A DNA stretch of 36,506 nucleotides, from the IMG/VR virus record IMGVR_UViG_2534681651_000007, positions 1-36,506 of that record. The stretch is one strand, 5' to 3'. The notes beneath the pieces were generated by a model. That model was not told the DNA's origin. It did not search any database and saw nothing but the letters and a program-made list of their open reading frames with translations. The DNA comes from a virus. Lineage: Duplodnaviria; Heunggongvirae; Uroviricota; Caudoviricetes. A program made the position numbers and the translations under genes. Positions 1 through 36,506 of this stretch are shown here, piece after piece. Positions within the stretch are counted from its first letter, which is position 1. Each line of letters begins with the position of its first letter.

Positions 1-1284
1 TTACTTCTTCGCCTCTGCAACCACTTTGCTACCCACGCCGCGGTTATTGTATTCCCACATGCGGTTGTAGTTAGTGTCATTCAGATTACGCTGTACTTCG
101 TCGTTATCATCAACGCTGCCGGTGTTACCCGCAAACGGACGATTGGAAATCACCGCATCGGCCCACGGTTTCGCCGTGTTAAAACCTTCGTTGATGGCAC
201 TATCACGGATCACCACCTGACCGTTGGTATTAGCATCAACATCCAGCGAGCGGCCCAGTTGCGCCACGCCATCACCGGAAGCATTGAAACGGCTGTTTAC
301 GGCGAGGAAACCGTAATAGATGTTAGACAGCGTAGCCGGTGCAAACACATACGCTTCTTGCTGAGTACGTGAGTTCACCACGCGGAATTCGGTATTATCG
401 AACACCACTGCGCCGCGACCAGAAACGATATCCACATCCCCTTCAATGTAACTGTTGGTCACCAGAGTACGCGGCTGACGGTTGGTTTCCAGACGGTTTT
501 GCACACCACTGTTGGTGACAAAGAAGGTATTCTGACGACCGAGAATGTTGACGTTATTGATCTGCACTTTGTCGCCATCAGTACGCAGTGCCACCGCCGG
601 ATGGTTACCCGCATCTACGCTATCGCCCAGCGTGTTTTCGATGGTCAGGTTTTGCAGTTGCAGGCCATTGTTTTGTGACCAGAAGACCGCAGAGCAGAGA
701 ACGCCGATACTGTCGCTGCGTTTGCTCTGGCAGCTATCGTACATATACCACGCTGGTTTACCTGGCATATATTTGCCGCGCGGGTTGACGTCGTGACGCC
801 AGTCGGCAGGGCTCATGCCCCCATCAAGGGAAAGCCCAATCTTCACATCAATCGGTTTTTCACCTGTACCGTACAGAGTAATTCCACCCGGAGCGGCAGG
901 GACATACACCGTTCCCTGATACTCACCAGGCATCACGGCAATATACTGGCGCTTGTTGGTGCGCTTGATAATTGCCGCATCTACCGCCGCCTGAATCGTG
1001 GTATGCGTTACACCTTGAGTACCCGCCGGGCCGACAACAAAGTCAGGTTGCGCAGGCAGGGTAATCGGGGAAGGATTCCACGCTGCCGCACCTGGTGTCA
1101 GGGATGCAAAATAGTGTTGAGCATCGAAATTCTGCGCTTCTTTTGCCGACAGAATCGGGCGAGAAGAGGTACCAGGCGCGGTTTGATCAGAAGGACGTTG
1201 ATCGGGCGGTGTTGAGCTACAGGCGGTCAGCGTCACGCCAAAAGCCAATGCCAGCGCCAGACGGGAAACTGAAAATGTGTTCAC
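1..1284 (-). CDS. ybhC: Host outer-membrane lipoprotein YbhC (pectinesterase-like), the gene flanking the lambda attachment site
   Basis: Complete 427-aa ORF with lipoprotein signal (…GVTLTACSS); N-terminus matches recalled E. coli YbhC; lambda att core lies 47 bp beyond its start codon. Confidence 0.85.
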   Translation of the reverse strand: MNTFSVSRLALALAFGVTLTACSSTPPDQRPSDQTAPGTSSRPILSAKEAQNFDAQHYFASLTPGAAAWNPSPITLPAQPDFVVGPAGTQGVTHTTIQAAVDAAIIKRTNKRQYIAVMPGEYQGTVYVPAAPGGITLYGTGEKPIDVKIGLSLDGGMSPADWRHDVNPRGKYMPGKPAWYMYDSCQSKRSDSIGVLCSAVFWSQNNGLQLQNLTIENTLGDSVDAGNHPAVALRTDGDKVQINNVNILGRQNTFFVTNSGVQNRLETNRQPRTLVTNSYIEGDVDIVSGRGAVVFDNTEFRVVNSRTQQEAYVFAPATLSNIYYGFLAVNSRFNASGDGVAQLGRSLDVDANTNGQVVIRDSAINEGFNTAKPWADAVISNRPFAGNTGSVDDNDEVQRNLNDTNYNRMWEYNNRGVGSKVVAEAKK

Positions 1285-1418: not shown

Positions 1419-2489
1419 TTATTTGATTTCAATTTTGTCCCACTCCCTGCCTCTGTCATCACGATACTGTGATGCCATGGTGTCCGACTTATGCCCGAGA
1501 AGATGTTGAGCAAACTTATCGCTTATCTGCTTCTCATAGAGTCTTGCAGACAAACTGCGCAACTCGTGAAAGGTAGGCGGATCCCCTTCGAAGGAAAGAC
1601 CTGATGCTTTTCGTGCGCGCATAAAATACCTTGATACTGTGCCGGATGAAAGCGGTTCACGACGAGTAGATGCAATTATGGTTTCTCCGCCAAGAATCTC
1701 TTTGCATTTATCAAGTGTTTCCTTCATTGATATCCCGAGAGCATCAACATGCAATGTTGTAGGGATGGCAATTTTTACGCCTGTTTTGCTTTGCTCGACA
1801 TAAAGATATCCATCTACGATATCAGACCACTTCATTTCGCATAAATCACCAACTCGCTGCCCGGTAACAACAGCCAGTTCCATTGCAAGTCTGAGCCAAC
1901 ATGGTGATGATTCTGCTGCTTGATAAATTTTCAGGTATTCGTCAGCCGTAAGTCTTGATCTCCTTACCTCTGATTTTGCAGCGCGAGTGGCAGCGACCGG
2001 GTTTATTGTTATATGGCCTTCAGCTATTGCCTCTCGGAATGCATCGCTCAGTGTTGATCTGATTAACTTGGCTGACGCCGCCTTGCCCTCGTCTATGTAT
2101 CCATTGAGCATTGCCGCAATTTCTTTTGTGGTGATGTCTTCAAGTGGAGCATCAGGCAGCCCCCTCCTTATTGCTTTAATTTTGCTCATGTAATTTATGA
2201 GTGTCTTCTGCTTGATTCCTCTGCTGGCGAGGATTTTTTCGTAGCGATCAAGCCATGAATGTAACGTAACAGAATTATCACTGTTGATTCTCGCTGTCAG
2301 AGGCTTGTGTTTGTGTCCTGAAAATAACTCAATGTTGGCCTGTATTGCTTCAGTGATTGCTATCCTCCTGTCTCGGCCTAATCCAAACTCTTTACCCGTC
2401 CTTGGGTCCCTGTAGCAGTAATATCCATTGTTTCTTATATAAAGATTAGGGGGTAAATCCCGGCGCTCATGACTTCGCCTTCTTCCCAT
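1419..2489 (-). CDS. int: Tyrosine integrase, lambda Int type
   Basis: 356-aa ORF beginning MGRRRSHERRDLPPNLYIRNNGYYCYRDPRTGKEFGLGRDRR, ending ...RDDRGREWDKIEIK, as recalled for lambda Int; adjacent to att P' arm. Confidence 0.97.
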   Translation of the reverse strand: MGRRRSHERRDLPPNLYIRNNGYYCYRDPRTGKEFGLGRDRRIAITEAIQANIELFSGHKHKPLTARINSDNSVTLHSWLDRYEKILASRGIKQKTLINYMSKIKAIRRGLPDAPLEDITTKEIAAMLNGYIDEGKAASAKLIRSTLSDAFREAIAEGHITINPVAATRAAKSEVRRSRLTADEYLKIYQAAESSPCWLRLAMELAVVTGQRVGDLCEMKWSDIVDGYLYVEQSKTGVKIAIPTTLHVDALGISMKETLDKCKEILGGETIIASTRREPLSSGTVSRYFMRARKASGLSFEGDPPTFHELRSLSARLYEKQISDKFAQHLLGHKSDTMASQYRDDRGREWDKIEIK

Positions 2490-29141: not shown

Positions 29142-30548
29142 ATGGCTACTTGGCAAGGATCAAATGGCGGATTGTTGGCTGGTATCGGTGGTGTCAACTC
29201 AAACGCTCCGAGCGTAAATGACATCGGCAATACGCTTCAGCTTATCAGGCAGAACAATGATATTGAGCGTTCAGGCGCCAATAATCTTGGGTTGACTGCT
29301 TTGCAAGGTCTTTCAGGTATTGCGGGTGTTTTTCAGCAGGAAAAGCAGGCTCAGCGGCAGAAAGAATTTCAGCAGGCATACGCTAATGCTTATGCGTCTG
29401 GTGATCGCGGTGCTTTGCGTCAGTTGGCTACTCAATATCCAGACCAGATTGAATCTGTTCGTAAAGGCATGGGATTCATTGATGAAGACCAGCGCAATTC
29501 TATCGGCACCTTAGCGGCTGGCGCACGCCTTGCATCATCGTCTCCAGAAGCAATGCAATCATGGCTGCAAAACAACGCCAAGGAACTGGCGCGCGTCGGT
29601 GTTGATCCTAACAACGTTGCTCAGATGTATCAGCAGAATCCCTCAGGATTTGGTGAGTTTGTTGATCACCTTGGAATGGCCGCGCTTGGTCCGATTGATT
29701 ACTTCAATGTTCAGGACAAGATGGCTGGTCGTGAGATTGATCGCGGAAAACTTGCAGAGACAATCCGCAGCAATCAGGCTGGTGAAGCACTTCAGGCGAG
29801 AGGGCAAAACCTTTCCTATCAGTCAGCAATGACTGGGCACAATATCGCAGCACAACGCTTGGCTCTGGATCAGCAAGAGTTCGGGTTTAAGATGCAGCAA
29901 GCGCAGGAAAAGGCTCAGCAGTTGATTAGCGAAGCACCTAAGCTGTCAGTAAACATGGAAAAAGGCATCGAGACGGCTGTAAACAATGCCACAGCATCAT
30001 CAAACTCAGCCAATTCTATGAGTGCGCTTGCTCAACAGTTCAGAGCAGAAAAACCAACGACAGGTTTGTTCGGTAACGCACAGAACATGTTCGCAAAACT
30101 TACCGGAAGCGATACGACATTGCGTGATTTGCGCATCCGACAAAATGCCCTTGTTAACAGTCAGGTTCTTAAATTCCTACCTCCCGGCCCCGCAACGGAT
30201 AAAGACGTTGAGATCGTTCGGCAGGGTGCGCCAACTGACATGGATAATCCTGAGACGGTCGCAAGATGGCTTGATGCGATGGCAAACCTTGAGCGACGAA
30301 ACGCGCAGTTTAATGAGTTTAAAGCCGAGTGGATGAGCGCGAATGGCAACCCTGGACAATCGCGTAATGGCGGTCAGATATTGGGGTTGGATGTTAAAAA
30401 AGGTGAATCATTGGGGAGTGCTGTTAAGAGGTATATGTCAATGAATACTGACGCAGCGCCAGCACAAGATTCGACTCCTTCAGGAGAATCACGGAATCAG
30501 GTTGGAGCATATACCTCAAAATCAGGCATTCAATTTACGGTGGAATGA
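29142..30548 (+). CDS. Ejection protein (P22 gp20-like)
   Basis: 468 aa; order and size match P22 gp20. Confidence 0.8.
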
Positions 30549-32392
30549 TGAAAGTAACTGCAAACGGTAAGACATTTACCTTCCCTGATGGTACGAGCAC
30601 GGAAGATATTGGCACCGCCATTGATGAGTATTTTGCTGGTCAGGCTGTTCAGCAAAAAACTGTCCGCCAGGATAGCAATGAACCAGTACGTGAAGAACCA
30701 TCATTGATGCAACAAGCTGGCGATTGGCTCACTGGTGGTCAAAGTGCAGGGCAAATTGCAGAACAGGCTGGTCGCGGTCTGGTAAACATACCATTCGACG
30801 TATTACAGGGCGGCGCAAGTCTGATTAATGCAATCAGCCAGGGGCTTGGTGGCCCCAAGGTTTTGGATGATGTTTATCGTCCAGTAGACAGACCGACAGA
30901 CCACTACGCTCAAGCTGGAGAAACAATTGGCGGGTATTTAGTTCCAGGAGTTGGAACGGCAGGAAGCATGGCTATTGGATCACTGGCAGAGGCCGCAAAT
31001 CAGAAAGGCGATTTCGCACAAAATGCAGCTAAAAATGCCGGAGTTAACCTCGCCGCTCAGGGTGTTCTTTCCGCAGCAGCAAAGGGAATAGGACGTGGAA
31101 TAACGGCTATAAAAGGCGATATTGCGCCAGAAGTAGCGAAAAAAATTGCCACATCAGAATCGATGGGCGTGACACCTATGACATCTGATGTAATCCCGCC
31201 GAAAAATGCTTTCACTCGTGGCCTTACTCAGGATGCCGAGGGGGCTTTGCTCGGGACAGGATCAAAGCGAGCGGAGCAATATGCAACGCGTAGTAAGCTG
31301 GTAAGTAATTACTTTGACCGTTTTGGTGAGTACAACCCTGATGATGTGGTGAAATCTCTGACCTCCACGTTAAGGGGGCGGAAGGATGCCGCTGGCGCTG
31401 TTATCAATGACGTCACCAATAAAATGGGTAATGCCGCAGTTGATACCACAAATACCATGAATGCTCTGAATACAGCGATCGCAAGACAGGAACGGCTTGG
31501 GACGTCTGCCAATCAAAGCCTGCTTACATCCTTGCGTAACCTACGTGAAGAATTAGCAAACCCTGCAACTGATTTGGATGTTACGTTTGATCTCTTGCGT
31601 CAGCACAGAACGGCATTTAGATCTAATGTTCAGGGAGATGCTATGGTCTTCCCCAACCAGGCAAAAGCAGCTACCAATATGGTAGAGAATGCAATGTCAA
31701 AAGACCTTCGTAACGCAGTTGCTAAAAAACTCGGTGCATCAGACGCAGCAAAATACCTTAAAGCAAATTCCGATTATGCAAACGTTTATAATAAGGTACT
31801 TAATAAAAACATTGCTAACAAGCTCAACAAGGCAAGCAGTGAAGCCAGTCCTGAACTTATAAATACCGTTGTATTAAGCAGAAAACCATCTGACGTGAAA
31901 CGAATCTGGAGCGCATTGGATAATAAAGGGAAAGATGCTATGCGTGCAGCTTACGTCAGCAAAATAGCGGAAAAGGCCGGTGACTCTCCAGCCAAGTTCA
32001 TCACTGAAGTTAATAAGCTGAAATCTCAGTCAGGCGGTGAAATTTACAACACTATTTTTTCTAGAAAGCACATGAAAGAGCTTGATGCTCTTCATGAAGT
32101 TCTACAGCAAACAGCAAGGTCAGACACCGCAAATGTAGTAACTCAGACTGGGCAATCGCAAGCCAACAGGATAAGGACGATTGGCGCAACTGCGACTCTT
32201 GGCGTATCAATGGGGATTGAGGCTGGTTTCGGTGCAATGATGCGCTTGTATGAGTCCAAAGCAGCAAGAAATGCTCTCTTACGTCTGGCAAACACCAAAG
32301 CAGGAACACCAGCCTATGAAAGAGCGCTAAATAATGCTGCAAATGCGATACGCCCTATACTTTCAAGCCAAATTACAGCAGAACAGCAATAA
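30545..32392 (+). CDS. Ejection protein (P22 gp16-like)
   Basis: 615 aa; order and size match P22 gp16; overlapping start with the preceding gene. Confidence 0.8.
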
Positions 32393-32406: not shown

Positions 32407-32892
32407 CTATCTGATATTACTGCTACTGTTGCATGTTACCGTGTTTCCAAATCCTGAATTGCAGTTTGTATATGTGTCAACGCGTGTTGGGTAAGGTTGA
32501 GTTATAACAGGCTGGCGCGCTTTTTGCTCGATCGCTTGCATTGTGTTTACAGCCTGATAATTCAATAAAGCCTGCTGGAATGCTTGGCTTTGTGCTATTT
32601 GTTGTGCTTGTTCTTGGCTTTGTAATTGAACATAAAGATTCTGAAGCTCAAGTCTTGCCTGTGCGTCACTTATCTTGCCTTCATCGACACCTTGCCCGAG
32701 CATCTTCGCAGCAAGGACATACAGCTTAGGGGTTGGTGCTGATGCCATGCGTGAGTCGTTCTTCACACTGGCATCAAGGCAATTCGCCATGTCGCTAAGT
32801 CTTGGATAACGTTGCTCGCAACTTGCCTGATAGTCGCTAACCTTTGCACACCCTGCCAGCAGAAGCGGGATAATTAACAGTGATTTTTTCAT
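32407..32892 (-). CDS. Lipoprotein (161 aa from the ATG at 32892; signal MKKSLLIIPLLLAGC), Gln-rich mature domain
   Basis: Lipobox LAGC after a hydrophobic signal; AAGGAGAG Shine-Dalgarno; reverse-oriented in the slot where P22 has sieA. Confidence 0.8.
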   Translation of the reverse strand: MKKSLLIIPLLLAGCAKVSDYQASCEQRYPRLSDMANCLDASVKNDSRMASAPTPKLYVLAAKMLGQGVDEGKISDAQARLELQNLYVQLQSQEQAQQIAQSQAFQQALLNYQAVNTMQAIEQKARQPVITQPYPTRVDTYTNCNSGFGNTVTCNSSSNIR

Positions 32893-33026
32893 ATGATTAA
32901 CTCTCCTTATCTTTGCCATCATGGCACTGTTGGGTGTAAATGAGTTATTAACTCAACTGACAATATCTTCACGGAAATACTTTTTATTATTAAGATCTTT
33001 CTGATTCTAACAAAACGGAAAGTAAT

Positions 33027-33446
33027 ATGAAGAGGATTATCGGCGTCGTTGCTGGCGCTATATTGTTATCTGGGTGTGCAACTATTGTTGGTGACGAAAC
33101 GCAGCTTGTGCAAGTGAACAGCAATCCTTCCGGTGCGAGCTTTAAAGTAAAAGACGAATCAGGCGTGATTGTTGCGCAAGGCAAGACCCCGCAAGGAGTA
33201 ACTCTTGCCAAGTCAGATGGTAGTTATTTTGGCAAAAAGAGCTATCAGATCACTATGGAAAAGGATGGGTACGAGCCAGTAACCTTGCCAATCAAAGCCA
33301 ATGCTAATGGTTGGTATATTGGTGGAAACCTTGTGTTTGGTGGGTTAATTGGTTGGCTTGCTGTAGATCCATTTAATGGTGGGATGTATACCTTGAAGCC
33401 AAAAGAGGCAAATGCATCCCTTATACCGTCCACAAAGCAAGACTAA
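33027..33446 (+). CDS. Lipoprotein with PEGA-like domain (139 aa; signal MKRIIGVVAGAILLSGC)
   Basis: Lipobox LSGC; motif NSNPSGASFKVKDESG...GKTP resembles the PEGA domain; Gly-rich hydrophobic C-terminal segment; followed by a strong terminator. Confidence 0.8.
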   Translation: MKRIIGVVAGAILLSGCATIVGDETQLVQVNSNPSGASFKVKDESGVIVAQGKTPQGVTLAKSDGSYFGKKSYQITMEKDGYEPVTLPIKANANGWYIGGNLVFGGLIGWLAVDPFNGGMYTLKPKEANASLIPSTKQD

Positions 33447-33454
33447 TAAATAGG

Positions 33455-33477
33455 ACCCACCTTCAGGTGGGTTTTTT
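33455..33477 (+). terminator. Rho-independent terminator (ACCCACC-TTCA-GGTGGGT followed by T6); the mnt stop codon lies in its loop
   Basis: Read directly. Confidence 0.8.
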
Positions 33478-33714
33478 GTACAAATCCTTCAGCGTATCAA
33501 ACACCATCTTCTTAACAAGTTCGGACTGCTCATCAGCGATGCGTTCTGCATCGTCTCGATAGCCTGAAATTTTGGATGGCTTTGATACAGCATCAGTAAC
33601 TATCTGAACTAATTCTGAATTAAGAGAGCGGCCATTGGATTTGGCTCGCTGTTTTAGTTTTTCCTTTAATTCGTAAGGTAGCCGCAGATTAAATTGCGGG
33701 TCATCTCTTCCCAT
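33463..33714 (-). CDS. mnt: Mnt repressor (ribbon-helix-helix, P22 immI type)
   Basis: 83-aa ORF MGRDDPQFNLRLPYELKEKLKQRAKSNGRSLNSELVQIVTDAVSKPSKISGYRDDAERIADEQSELVKKMVFDTLKDLYKKPT, close to recalled P22 Mnt. Confidence 0.9.
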   Translation of the reverse strand: MGRDDPQFNLRLPYELKEKLKQRAKSNGRSLNSELVQIVTDAVSKPSKISGYRDDAERIADEQSELVKKMVFDTLKDLYKKPT

Positions 33715-33777
33715 TCTTGATGCCTCGCTTTTGTGAGTGGATCGGCATCTTATTATCTGCTGGTTGCATCCTCAATA

Positions 33778-33792
33778 AGACCACTGTGGTCT
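33778..33792. promoter_or_regulatory. Candidate Mnt operator: perfect 15-bp palindrome AGACCACTGTGGTCT between mnt and the tailspike gene
   Basis: Palindrome read directly; half-site resembles the P22 Omnt dyad (GGTCCAC-G-GTGGACC as recalled). Confidence 0.55.
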
Positions 33793-33860
33793 CTTTATTT
33801 GATTAATAATGCATCACTGCGGCAATGCTGCGGCGATTCCTTGTATCTGGAGCAAATTAA

Positions 33861-36506
33861 ATGACAGACATTACAGCCAATGTTGTAGTGAGTATGCCTT
33901 CGCAACTCTTCACTATGGCGCGTTCTTTTAAAGCGGTTGCCAATGGCAAAATTTATATCGGTAAAATTGACACTGACCCTGTAAATCCTGAAAACCAGAT
34001 TCAGGTTTATGTAGAGAACGAAGATGGCTCTCATGCTCCTGTTTCGCAACCAATCATCATTAACGCTGCTGGATATCCGGTATATAACGGACAGATTGCC
34101 AAGTTCGTAACTGTGCAAGGCCATTCTATGGCTGTTTATGATGCGTATGGTGCACAGCAGTTCTATTTTCCTAATGTGCTGAAGTATGACCCGGATCAGT
34201 TTAAACAAAAAGTATTATCAAATGATATGCTAAATATGTCTCCTCTTTATTTTGGAGCTAAGGGGGATGGGATTAGCGATGATACTGAAGCATTTGTCGC
34301 GTTGGAAATGGATATAAAAAATAGGGTTATTGATTTAAGTGGAAGAGCATTTTTTGTTACTAAAAGTTTTATTAAAAATAGCTATATAAATGGTTCTTTT
34401 ATTCGTGATAGCAGTAAACGAATTGCGATTGGTGATCTTAAAGTAAGAGATAAAAGAGAGCCATTGATATTTTCCGGAATGCCAAAAGTATATAACACCA
34501 GACACACGTTGCGCAGAACTGAAGGTGCGGGTGGTTTATATGCGGTCATTCAGGGGTGTTGTTATGATGAAATTAACGACAAGATTTTTACTTTATCATC
34601 TACCACAGCATACGGTTATTGCATTAATGCCTTTGACGTGACGAATTCTGGTGAACTAGGAAGATACGACAGAACTCGTTCTACTGAACTTGGGCATCAG
34701 GGGCTTGGATTGCATCATAATCCTGATGGTACTGTCGTGCTGTGGACATCGAAGCCTTATGGAACTGATGCCGCCAATCAATGTATTTCGATGGAAAATA
34801 TATTGAGTTACACAGGGACAACTAACGGAGTATCTGAAGGTTTTATCACCTGGAAGTTGTTCCCCTATGATGGAATGAGCGCAAGCTCTACTCCAACTGT
34901 ATCAAGTTGTGAAAACTATCTCCTTGCCAAGAAAATTTCATCGGATGGAATTACCTGCACGGTTCGTGTTTTCGACATAGTCAGCATGTGGAATAACAGA
35001 GCTCATAAAACTGATTATAGTGATGATTATTTAGTTGAGTTTAGCTATCAAAAACCATCACAAGAAGCATTTACCCAATCAATTGCTTGCGATGGGGCAT
35101 ACATTTACATACTTGAGTCACATATGTATGTTGGCATGACTAATTATATTTACGTATTTGACTTAACAGGCAGGTTTATTGAGCGAGTAGATATTTCAAC
35201 TGTTGGTGATGATGAAGCAAAATCTGATAGTACAGGAACTCCTGTTTATAAAGAGCCTGAGTCCCTAACAGTAATTAGAACGGAGAGTGGGTATGTTTTA
35301 ACGCTGGGGATATGCACATATAAAGGAGTTGCTGAGAACGGGAAAAATGTATATCTGTTTGATATAGGCAGGTCTGGTTCGGTAGTGCAAAGCAAAGCAA
35401 GCCGTTCTGTATCCAGTAATACTGGTCTTCATAGTTCTGGCTCCCCGGAGTTCAAATATGGAGTAAGGGAGTACAATGATACTTTTCACTGGACAGTTTG
35501 GCCAACAAGAAAGGGTATTCAAACTAACCGGGATAACCCTATATTGTTCCTTGATGGCGGAATTACTGGTGGAATGCAGTTAGCTTCAAATGGTACGGAA
35601 GGGATGAGCAACTCATGGGTTTCTCGGCATCAGTCAGATACCGCAGAAGGACCAAGAGCAATAATGTATAAATCTCGTTCTGGTGTTGTATCAACTGATA
35701 ATTTTGGAGCCCTGCAGACAGGGGATGTATTGGGTACTCATGTATGGGCCGGTGATACGGGTAGTAAGGCTGTGCAATGCGCAAGCATTAAATGCGTCAC
35801 AAGAGGCAATCCTTCCGGAGAAAATATCCCAGTTGCTTTTTACTTTGGAACTATGGGAGAGAGTGACGGCTTGCGTGACAGATGGGTATTAACAGAATTA
35901 GGTCATTTTCGACCATCAGGTTCAAATCTCTATGATATTGGTACACAGTCGAATACTGTCAGAAATCTGTACATCAATAATAGTCCAATTGTAACCAGCG
36001 ACAGAAATTACAAGCAGGATGAAACTTCATTATCTGATGCAGAACTGCGGGTTGGAATGGCTATTTACCCGCTGATAAAAAAATTCAGAATGAAGGATGC
36101 TGTAAAAGAAAAAGGCTTATTAGCGCGTGAGCATATCGGTGTAATTGCGCAAGATATACAATCCATCTTTGCATCGGCAGGGCTTGATGCATTTTCTTAT
36201 GGGGTTCTTTGTTATGAAGAGTGGAATGACGAGTTCGAGAAAGTCTATGCAACAAGAAATGTGACCAGGAAAATTTTGGTTGATGAAGAGTCTGGTCAAT
36301 ATGATGAAATCATAGAGGAAGAAGAGTATGAAACGGGTGAGGTAAGGCTACTTGTAGAATCAGGAAGGAAATTATCAGTGCGCTATGACGAGTTAATGTT
36401 TCTGGCAATGAGCGCACTATATCATCGCCATGAACAGGATATTGCCAATATCACATCAAAGATTAATGATCTGGAAAGATTATTAAAATTAACACTAAAT
36501 GGTTGA
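33861..36506 (+). CDS. Tailspike: P22 gp9-like N-terminal head-binding domain, beta-helix (pectin-lyase-like) receptor domain, C-terminal intramolecular-chaperone (self-cleaving) domain
   Basis: N-terminal about 120 aa ([43 protein letters not shown]...) nearly identical to recalled P22 gp9; motif [16 protein letters not shown] typical of beta-helix glycosidases; near the C-terminus TSDRNYK (Ser and Lys five residues apart) then LSDAELR...IYPLIK, resembling the S74-type chaperone domain. Confidence 0.88.

Follow-up and report, generated by a model that had tools for sequence, protein, structure and literature searches.

The interval between gene 16 and gene 9 of P22-like phages, known as the “ant moron” (or immI region), is subject to high flux and is an established moron hotspot (PMC2629481). 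In P22 itself, SieA stops DNA entry at the inner membrane, escape mutations being located in gp16 and gp20, and SieA is present in 22 of 66 P22-like phages; HK97 gp15 is likewise cited as a prophage-encoded protein that prevents DNA injection (PMC10883804). Outer membrane lipoproteins through which prophages protect or modify their host are also already known, namely Cor, Llp and Bor. Here we describe two lipoprotein genes in the 36,506 nucleotide stretch of DNA of IMG/VR virus record IMGVR_UViG_2534681651_000007 (hereafter the window), the final 7 kb of which represents the right end of a P22-like (Lederbergvirus) prophage, as judged by gene order and Pfam matches. The two genes, termed LipoA (32407-32892, minus strand) and LipoB (33027-33446, plus strand), encode precursors of 161 and 139 amino acids, both of predicted outer membrane type, and diverge from a spacer of 134 bp (32893-33026). 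They are two independent add-on genes and do not form an obligate two-gene system. We regard the anatomy, the independence and the moron status of the two genes as jointly well supported. The overall explanation that we favour, to which we give about an even chance, is that they are separate morons that are autonomously expressed within the hypervariable stretch bounded by gene 16 and the tailspike gene.

Both genes have the hallmark of morons, in that they separate genes which are neighbours in related phages, and their presence varies among relatives. The sequence-only reading from which this analysis started had treated them as a pair, plausibly an exclusion system served by an AT-rich shared promoter region, and had proposed that their co-occurrence in other prophages be checked. 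Co-occurrence does not bear out the pair. In a viral survey of 80 IMG/VR contigs with LipoA and 80 with LipoB (160 loci), LipoB is present in 16 of the 80 LipoA contigs and LipoA in 16 of the 80 LipoB contigs. In a bacterial survey of 5,426 complete Escherichia coli genomes, LipoA is found in 186, LipoB in 124 and the contiguous pair in 23. Megablast searches against phages recover the entire module at approximately 97% identity only from Escherichia phages Gally and vB_EcoP-720R6. The match to epsilon34 extends only from 10 bp upstream of LipoB onwards and that to VSe13 covers only LipoA and 17 bp upstream of it, limits which reveal mosaic joints at the gene borders. Epsilon34 and O111:H8 prophages carry LipoB without LipoA, and VSe13, Brookers and the O26 and O104 prophages carry LipoA without LipoB. 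Since the genes assort independently, the spacer is not a regulatory region that has been conserved as part of a fixed two-gene unit, although it is indeed divergent and AT-rich (31% GC, compared with 47% for the whole window). The other flank of LipoA is variable and may be occupied by LipoB, by nothing, or by genes encoding a Bro-N antirepressor, an HExxH-type protein or a secreted protein of 105 amino acids. In a Citrobacter freundii P22-like prophage, a third, unrelated lipoprotein (MKVKGLIITLLVSGSLLVSGGCSVY...; 5497-5886 in contig L023 and 2578-2982 in contig L024) is encoded divergently from LipoA at the position of LipoB.

The sequence-only reading had placed the two genes between the last ejection protein gene and mnt, in the slot occupied by sieA in P22, and this placement is correct. 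LipoA and P22 sieA are both on the minus strand, 14 bp past the gp16-like gene and 22 bp past gene 16, respectively. Wherever enough flanking sequence is available, LipoA is oriented convergently with gene 16 and is bordered by a gp16-like gene on one side and by the tailspike head-binding domain on the other. This arrangement is present in 78 of the 80 LipoA contigs and is maintained from 99% down to 48% LipoA identity across ten genera or lineages (E. coli, Salmonella, Proteus, Serratia, Citrobacter, Morganella, Providencia, two Tatumella species and a metagenome-assembled genome). LipoA sequences with 98-99% identity are linked to gp16 proteins that are approximately 30%, 40%, 50%, 70% or 100% identical to that of the window, and LipoA is therefore no mere hitch-hiker with one type of ejection protein. 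None of the 80 LipoA loci contains a P22-type SieA or HkcB. When the slot following gene 16 was inspected in the 80 LipoB contigs, a small envelope protein (secreted, transmembrane or lipoprotein) was found in 60; the longest open reading frame was uninterpretable in 9 of the remainder and 11 were unassigned. At least five unrelated occupants can be distinguished at these loci (L117-L196): a secreted protein of 129 amino acids, LipoA, an HkcB-like protein, a protein of 109 amino acids with a transmembrane segment and a coiled coil, and a membrane protein of 62 amino acids. A leader of about 30 nucleotides (TCATGGTATCCTGCACAAAACTAAGGAG) before the start codon is common to P22 sieA and to LipoA of VSe13 and the O26 prophages, and is also found before epsilon34 hkcB and before the gene for a secreted 129 amino acid protein of O111:H8 prophages. 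The LipoA leaders of the window (32893-32925) and of Gally are a diverged version of it. The presence of this leader ahead of unrelated genes that follow gene 16 suggests cassette exchange behind a common expression signal. LipoA constitutes an alternative cassette of the sieA locus, which replaces sieA exactly and in several phages has the leader and Shine-Dalgarno sequence of sieA; the equivalence is one of position and not of homology.

LipoB relatives with 67-81% identity are found in several different genomic settings. Homologues are located between the tail assembly chaperone and tape-measure genes in lambdoid prophages of the E. coli ED1a type and in Proteus, between gpI and gpJ in Pseudescherichia and others, and in ordinary chromosomal neighbourhoods in Enterobacter and one further genome. 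LipoB is a promiscuous and more mobile moron, belonging to a large family that is unrelated to LipoA. The ED1a-type lambdoid prophages (L006-L009) also contain a porin gene (Pfam Porin_1) between gpM-like and gpL-like tail genes, which is a second outer membrane moron in the tail cluster that harbours the LipoB homologue.

Expression of the Gally orthologues (98% identical for LipoA and 100% for LipoB, with a near-identical spacer) can be followed in published RNA sequencing data for E. coli LF82, a strain other than that of the window (PMC9928086, tables S1 and S4; mean log2(fpkm+5) of two replicates, where fpkm denotes fragments per kilobase per million). GALLYPH_13 (LipoA) is at 6.1 in stationary phase in lysogeny broth (LB), at approximately 8.1 in Dulbecco's modified Eagle's medium (DMEM), and at 10.3 and 8.6 after 1 h and 6 h in macrophages. 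The corresponding values for GALLYPH_14 (LipoB) are 5.5, approximately 10.2, 11.0 and 9.4, and the neighbouring ejection genes range from 2.3 to 4.2 across all conditions. Expression in macrophages is thus about 16-fold (LipoA) and 50-fold (LipoB) higher than in stationary LB, and LipoB reaches the level of slyB in DMEM and in macrophages. Transcription of both genes while the adjacent ejection genes are silent points to autonomous transcription from the prophage. The sequence-only reading had stated that lack of expression in lysogens would count against a role in exclusion; these near-identical orthologues are transcribed in the LF82 lysogen. Both are among the most strongly macrophage-induced genes of Gally, though this phage has been reported to carry no morons (PMC9928086).

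The open reading frame listed for LipoA (32407-32922, minus strand) corresponds to a longer product of 171 amino acids. The true start is almost certainly the ATG at 32892 (MKKSLLIIPLLLAGC...), since it is preceded by AAGGAG, all homologues begin there and the RefSeq LF82 orthologue is annotated in the same way; the start at 32922 is ruled out by the homologue starts and the position of the Shine-Dalgarno sequence. The signal peptide and lipobox (32848-32892, minus strand; MKKSLLIIPLLLAG followed by C) consist of a basic n-region and a hydrophobic h-region that end in L-A-G-C15, and no further hydrophobic segment is found in the protein beyond the signal peptide. Among 45 homologues C15 is invariant and G14 is at least 90% conserved. 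The description of this protein as Gln-rich with Cys residues in its mature part is accurate: mature LipoA contains 13.6% Gln, with 13 Gln in the 42 residues from 85 to 126, and the four Cys residues beyond the lipid attachment site (C25, C38, C144 and C154) are each at least 90% conserved in a 56-sequence superfamily alignment. AlphaFold predicts a helical bundle for residues 18-96 with pLDDT (predicted local distance difference test) scores of 81-89, while the Gln-rich helix, a Pro-rich linker and the C-terminal Cys-Cys hairpin are all of low confidence. LipoA matches phrog_6067, a family of “unknown function”, over its full length (E=5e-110), and no family was assigned from PADLOC, NCBIfam or Pfam. 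The label “GspK” was rejected as a low-complexity artefact of the Gln-rich region (NCBIfam GspK, 18.9 bits against a cut-off of 130 bits). An exhaustive profile search places LipoA in a superfamily of 261 representative clusters of lipoproteins of approximately 125-190 amino acids, none of which is named and none of which has any Pfam coverage. The features common to the superfamily are the lipobox, a CE...C pair (C25/C38), the helical domain and a C-terminal TxC..GN..C motif (C144/C154). Distant members occur in a chromosome, on a P4-like integrative island and on a phage-like contig. The island, found on metagenomic contigs L198 and L199, has an integrase-AlpA-primase/helicase organisation resembling that of P4-like satellites, and its superfamily member (P0263) adjoins a gene encoding a T5orf172 domain.

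The N-terminus of LipoB (MKRIIGVVAGAILLSGC...) likewise comprises a basic n-region and a hydrophobic h-region, followed by the lipobox L-S-G-C17, in which the Cys is invariant in 53 homologues. The two proteins had been recognised as lipoproteins in the sequence-only reading, and their lipoboxes are canonical. For LipoB a PEGA-like domain and a Gly-rich hydrophobic tail had also been proposed. The tail is present as residues 94-121 (NGWYIGGNLVFGGLIGWLAVDPFNGGMY; codons 33306-33389, plus strand), the best-conserved segment of the family, which contains 8 Gly in 28 residues and is of moderate hydrophobicity. The match to Pfam PEGA (PF08308) scores 17.6 bits (E=0.0037) against a gathering cut-off of 20.8, and the fold predicted by AlphaFold and compared by fold search is a PEGA-like beta-sandwich of the transthyretin/CnaB type. 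Invariant residues within the conserved segment are G95, W96, Y97, N101, G109, D114, P115, G118, M120 and Y121, and AlphaFold models it with low confidence as two short helices (96-104 and 107-112), after which come two more strands. The segment resembles a Gly-zipper-like hydrophobic hairpin. LipoB matches phrog_6823, which is also a family of “unknown function”, over its full length (E=6e-86).

Both proteins conform to the lipobox pattern [LVI][ASTVI][GAS]C at the end of an N-terminal signal peptide. Residue +2 is Ala in each case, with no Asp, and the standard Lol +2 rule accordingly predicts sorting to the outer membrane, where LipoA and LipoB are therefore probably located. The ratio of nonsynonymous to synonymous substitution rates (dN/dS) with respect to close relatives is 0.03-0.06 for LipoA and 0.00-0.02 for LipoB, and these values, 0.00-0.06 overall, signify strong purifying selection and exclude the possibility that the two are non-functional hitchhiker reading frames. 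With respect to distant relatives dS is saturated in 8 of 9 comparisons and dN is 0.13-0.45. Profile matches of the two proteins to PDB sequences were discarded because they are confined to signal peptides or are noise.

Consensus scanning picks out a candidate sigma-70 promoter for LipoA (33004-33031, minus strand; TTCATA-16-TAGAAT with a TG element). Another candidate, for LipoB (32968-32996, plus strand; TTCACG-17-TAAGAT), can be read from the sequence; it matches at 8 of 12 positions and falls under the threshold of the scanner. The promoters are only consensus-like, and such sites are no more numerous than expected by chance. The candidate -35 and -10 elements of LipoB are also kept (TTCACA-17-TAGGAT) upstream of LipoB in epsilon34 and in an O111:H8 prophage. 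The spacer is near-identical to that of Gally, and elsewhere only the approximately 60 bp proximal to LipoB are kept across LipoB contexts. Visual inspection of the spacer for a PhoP box, made with macrophage induction in mind, gave only a poor half-match, and an Rfam scan of the region from 31.5 to 34.5 kb returned nothing meaningful. Between LipoB and mnt there is a predicted bidirectional intrinsic terminator (33455-33472), a GC-rich hairpin with T-runs on both sides, and the homologous site in epsilon34 is annotated as a Rho-independent terminator.

The final late gene ahead of the moron region is the gp16-like ejection gene (30545-32392, plus strand, 615 amino acids), and upstream of it is a gp20-like gene (29142-30548; Pfam Inj_translocase). 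The gp16-like protein of the window is 75% identical to P22 gp16, 97% identical to gp16 of an E. coli O26:H11 prophage and just 32% identical to Gally gp16. The combination of the O26-like gp16 (97% identical) with LipoA and LipoB was found in none of the 160 IMG/VR contigs examined, and the window is therefore a distinct recombinant. On the other side of LipoB is mnt (33463-33714, minus strand), encoding an Arc/Mnt-family repressor (Pfam Arc, E=3e-22; Repressor_Mnt, E=2e-18), and then the tailspike gene (33861-36506, plus strand, continuing past the end of the window; Pfam Head_binding, E=3e-66, and Peptidase_S74), which forms the right border of the “ant moron” region. The layout of the right end includes no arc, ant or sieA, so that mnt is an orphan, and SieA was not found in the window by motif search or tblastn. 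A palindrome resembling the O_mnt operator (33772-33795; CTCAATAAGACCACTGTGGTCTCT, compared with CTCAATAGGTCCACGGTGGACCTGT, the annotated mnt operator of P22) lies just 5' to the tailspike gene, and transcription of this gene from the prophage may be under Mnt control. In LF82 carrying Gally, mnt is approximately 40-fold and the tailspike gene approximately 21-fold up in macrophages. The GC content of the tailspike gene is markedly low, down to 33%, and its Peptidase_S74 domain is a C-terminal intramolecular chaperone. At the left end of the window an open reading frame of the pectinesterase family resembling ybhC (1-1284, minus strand) adjoins a lambda-type integrase gene (1419-2489, minus strand), which suggests integration near att-lambda; this differs from the integration site of Gally, torS/torT.

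Our best single guess for LipoA, which we put forward tentatively, is that it may be a prophage-expressed superinfection exclusion factor comparable to SieA. Such a role is suggested by the association of LipoA with P22-like phages only, by its exact replacement of sieA, by the common leader and by the envelope nature of the alternative occupants of the slot. LipoA would act in the periplasm, on the outer membrane side, against incoming P22-like phages, whereas SieA acts from the inner membrane, and could interfere with the trans-envelope conduit formed by the ejection proteins gp7, gp20 and gp16. A more specific version, which we consider doubtful, would make LipoA the representative of a new class of exclusion protein, anchored in the outer membrane and stabilised by disulfides, with a long Gln-rich arm that extends into the periplasm and prevents the gp7/gp20/gp16 DNA-delivery conduit of P22-like phages from assembling; it would thereby be the counterpart of SieA on the outer membrane side. 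The slot following gene 16 would then be a dedicated “exclusion cassette” locus, in which at least six unrelated small envelope proteins (SieA, the HkcB-like protein, two membrane proteins, one secreted protein and LipoA) would be swapped behind a partly common leader.

For LipoB a general function in the outer membrane is plausible, although we would stop short of calling it probable. It might stabilise or remodel the membrane, or cover outer membrane proteins, by means of the Gly-zipper-like segment, and effects on phages, if any, would follow from this general action. The spread of LipoB over unrelated slots and chromosomes, its very high expression under host-like conditions and the conservation of the Gly-zipper-like segment are the grounds for this assignment. 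Receptor masking or exclusion as a consequence of LipoB is conceivable but rather unlikely.

Several observations weigh against the explanation that we favour. The argument for exclusion is purely positional, fair in the case of LipoA but weak in that of LipoB. The mutual exclusivity with LipoA covers only type A (P22) SieA. PADLOC-DB 2.0 contains no family that matches LipoA or LipoB at E≤1, fold searches return only generic matches for both, and searches of the literature by accession, locus tag or topic turned up no work on either protein. No Pfam family is matched above threshold by either, and together with the PADLOC result and the uninformative PHROG families this agrees with the view, taken from the start, that the two do not correspond to a named exclusion system. 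Both families have chromosomal, non-phage relatives, which fit a general envelope role equally well, and strong purifying selection with little variation is not the usual signature of an arms race. The authors of the LF82 study scored neither gene as a moron, as expression in stationary LB was 4.5-fold (LipoA) and 3.3-fold (LipoB) over background and their cut-off was 5-fold. Moreover the rise of the two lipoprotein genes in LF82 is accompanied by that of mnt, of the tailspike gene and of the last prophage gene, so that the increase may be partly regional. The induction seen in DMEM and macrophages is at least as suggestive of host adaptation.

Host adaptation is indeed the main rival for both genes. 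One or both might reinforce or remodel the outer membrane under envelope stress or host-like conditions, in the manner of lambda Bor, TraT, SlyB or YfgH, and contribute to host fitness or virulence by lysogenic conversion, without a direct role against phages; we think this a serious possibility, albeit one to be held with considerable reserve. The strong induction in LF82 in DMEM and macrophages compared with stationary LB and the slyB-like expression level of LipoB in these conditions are consistent with it, as is the published observation that the Bor lipoprotein gene carried by another LF82 prophage is induced in DMEM (PMC9928086). The occurrence of LipoB across phage morphotypes and on chromosomes is hard to reconcile with a phage-specific target, and its Gly-zipper-like hairpin recalls outer membrane-stabilising lipoproteins (bioRxiv 10.64898/2025.12.22.696046 and 10.64898/2026.06.08.730324), a resemblance and not a homology. 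LipoB, however, has no sequence relation to SlyB (hhalign probability 1.3%) or to the Pfam Gly-zipper families, and it would not be explained why LipoA is strictly confined to the sieA slot in P22-like phages. Nor does deletion of the whole of Gally reduce survival of LF82 in macrophages, and the passages on Gally in an in vivo CRISPR interference preprint, which were not searched for GALLYPH_13 or GALLYPH_14 by name, name only Gallyph_21.

A role in the lytic cycle, either as a helper in lysis and release or in protecting infected cells and progeny in the manner of T5 Llp, is very unlikely. PHROG matches of the two proteins to an Rz-like spanin and to Cor hint at it, but these are weak, extend only over residues 1-40, fall under every threshold and reflect the signal peptides. 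LipoB is co-oriented with the late operon, so that late transcription has to pass through it before arriving at the tailspike gene, but LipoA is antisense to this operon, transcripts of both genes are present in LF82 at a time when the late genes are silent, and both are missing from many P22-like phages (PMC2629481; PMC10883804). It is highly improbable that the two genes constitute a cooperative exclusion system, driven by a bidirectional promoter, that blocks entry or masks a receptor: the divergent layout about a single AT-rich spacer, its retention at approximately 97% identity in Gally, vB_EcoP-720R6 and 23 complete E. coli genomes, and induction of both genes by the same conditions would suit such a system, but the co-occurrence counts from both surveys largely refute it, as do the LipoA-only and LipoB-only prophages and the LipoB genes in unrelated prophage slots.

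The favoured reading, that of two separate morons of which LipoA may exclude incoming phages, has implications beyond this prophage. The passage of DNA from short-tailed phages across the periplasm is still poorly understood and, to our knowledge, SieA is the sole genetic handle on the P22 ejection protein conduit. If LipoA excludes phages from the outer membrane side, it would provide a second, mechanistically distinct probe of this conduit, and would mark the slot following gene 16 as a site at which exclusion factors are inserted as cassettes. If the two proteins are instead envelope fitness factors, they represent overlooked lysogenic conversion genes. The genes are present in clinically relevant E. 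coli, including adherent-invasive E. coli LF82, O26:H11, O104:H4 and O111:H8 strains and isolates of sequence type 131. Both sequences are already in databases as “hypothetical protein” with no published function, and epsilon34 gene 15 was noted as early as 2008.

Among named phage proteins the true orthologues of LipoA and LipoB are Gally GALLYPH_13 and GALLYPH_14 (98-100% identical), epsilon34 gp15 (gene 15) and VSe13_014 (96-98%), and Brookers gp14 (55%), all of which are annotated as hypothetical. In the remaining cases the likeness is one of architecture, location or description. SlyB and YfgH share with LipoB a lipid anchor, a beta-sandwich and a Gly-rich hydrophobic helical hairpin but differ in domain order, and LipoB has no match to a Pfam Gly-zipper family at E≤1; the hhalign comparison of LipoB with LF82 SlyB aligns only the lipobox, and the relationship is therefore a resemblance only. 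The LipoB homologues that are single-gene morons beside the tape-measure gene of lambdoid prophages can be likened by description to HK97 gp15, the gene for which we take to be adjacent to the tape-measure gene. HK97 gp15 is, however, an inner membrane protein and not a lipoprotein. Cor (phi80/N15) and Llp (T5) are proteins of a broadly similar type, being small phage-encoded outer membrane lipoproteins that protect the host cell, and act on FhuA. There is no homology to Cor, since the score against NCBIfam NF047972 is 11.7 bits compared with a cut-off of 31 bits and the match to phrog_1119 covers only residues 1-20 or 1-30, within the signal peptide, or to Llp, for which the match to the PDB sequence is likewise confined to the signal peptide. 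LipoA and LipoB are non-homologous to Cor, Llp and Bor alike. LipoA would add a new mechanism if it is proven to be an exclusion factor. SieA is a polytopic inner membrane protein with a cytoplasmic FxRYPxEAxxFNK motif (PMC10883804), in contrast to LipoA, which is a lipoprotein that lacks this motif and any transmembrane segment past its signal peptide, and comparison of the two profiles reveals no similarity (hhalign probability 0.2%). Nevertheless, P22 SieA and LipoA correspond in locus, strand and approximate gene size (495 and 486 bp), directly after gene 16, they share a 5' leader in some phages, and both are envelope proteins expressed from the prophage.

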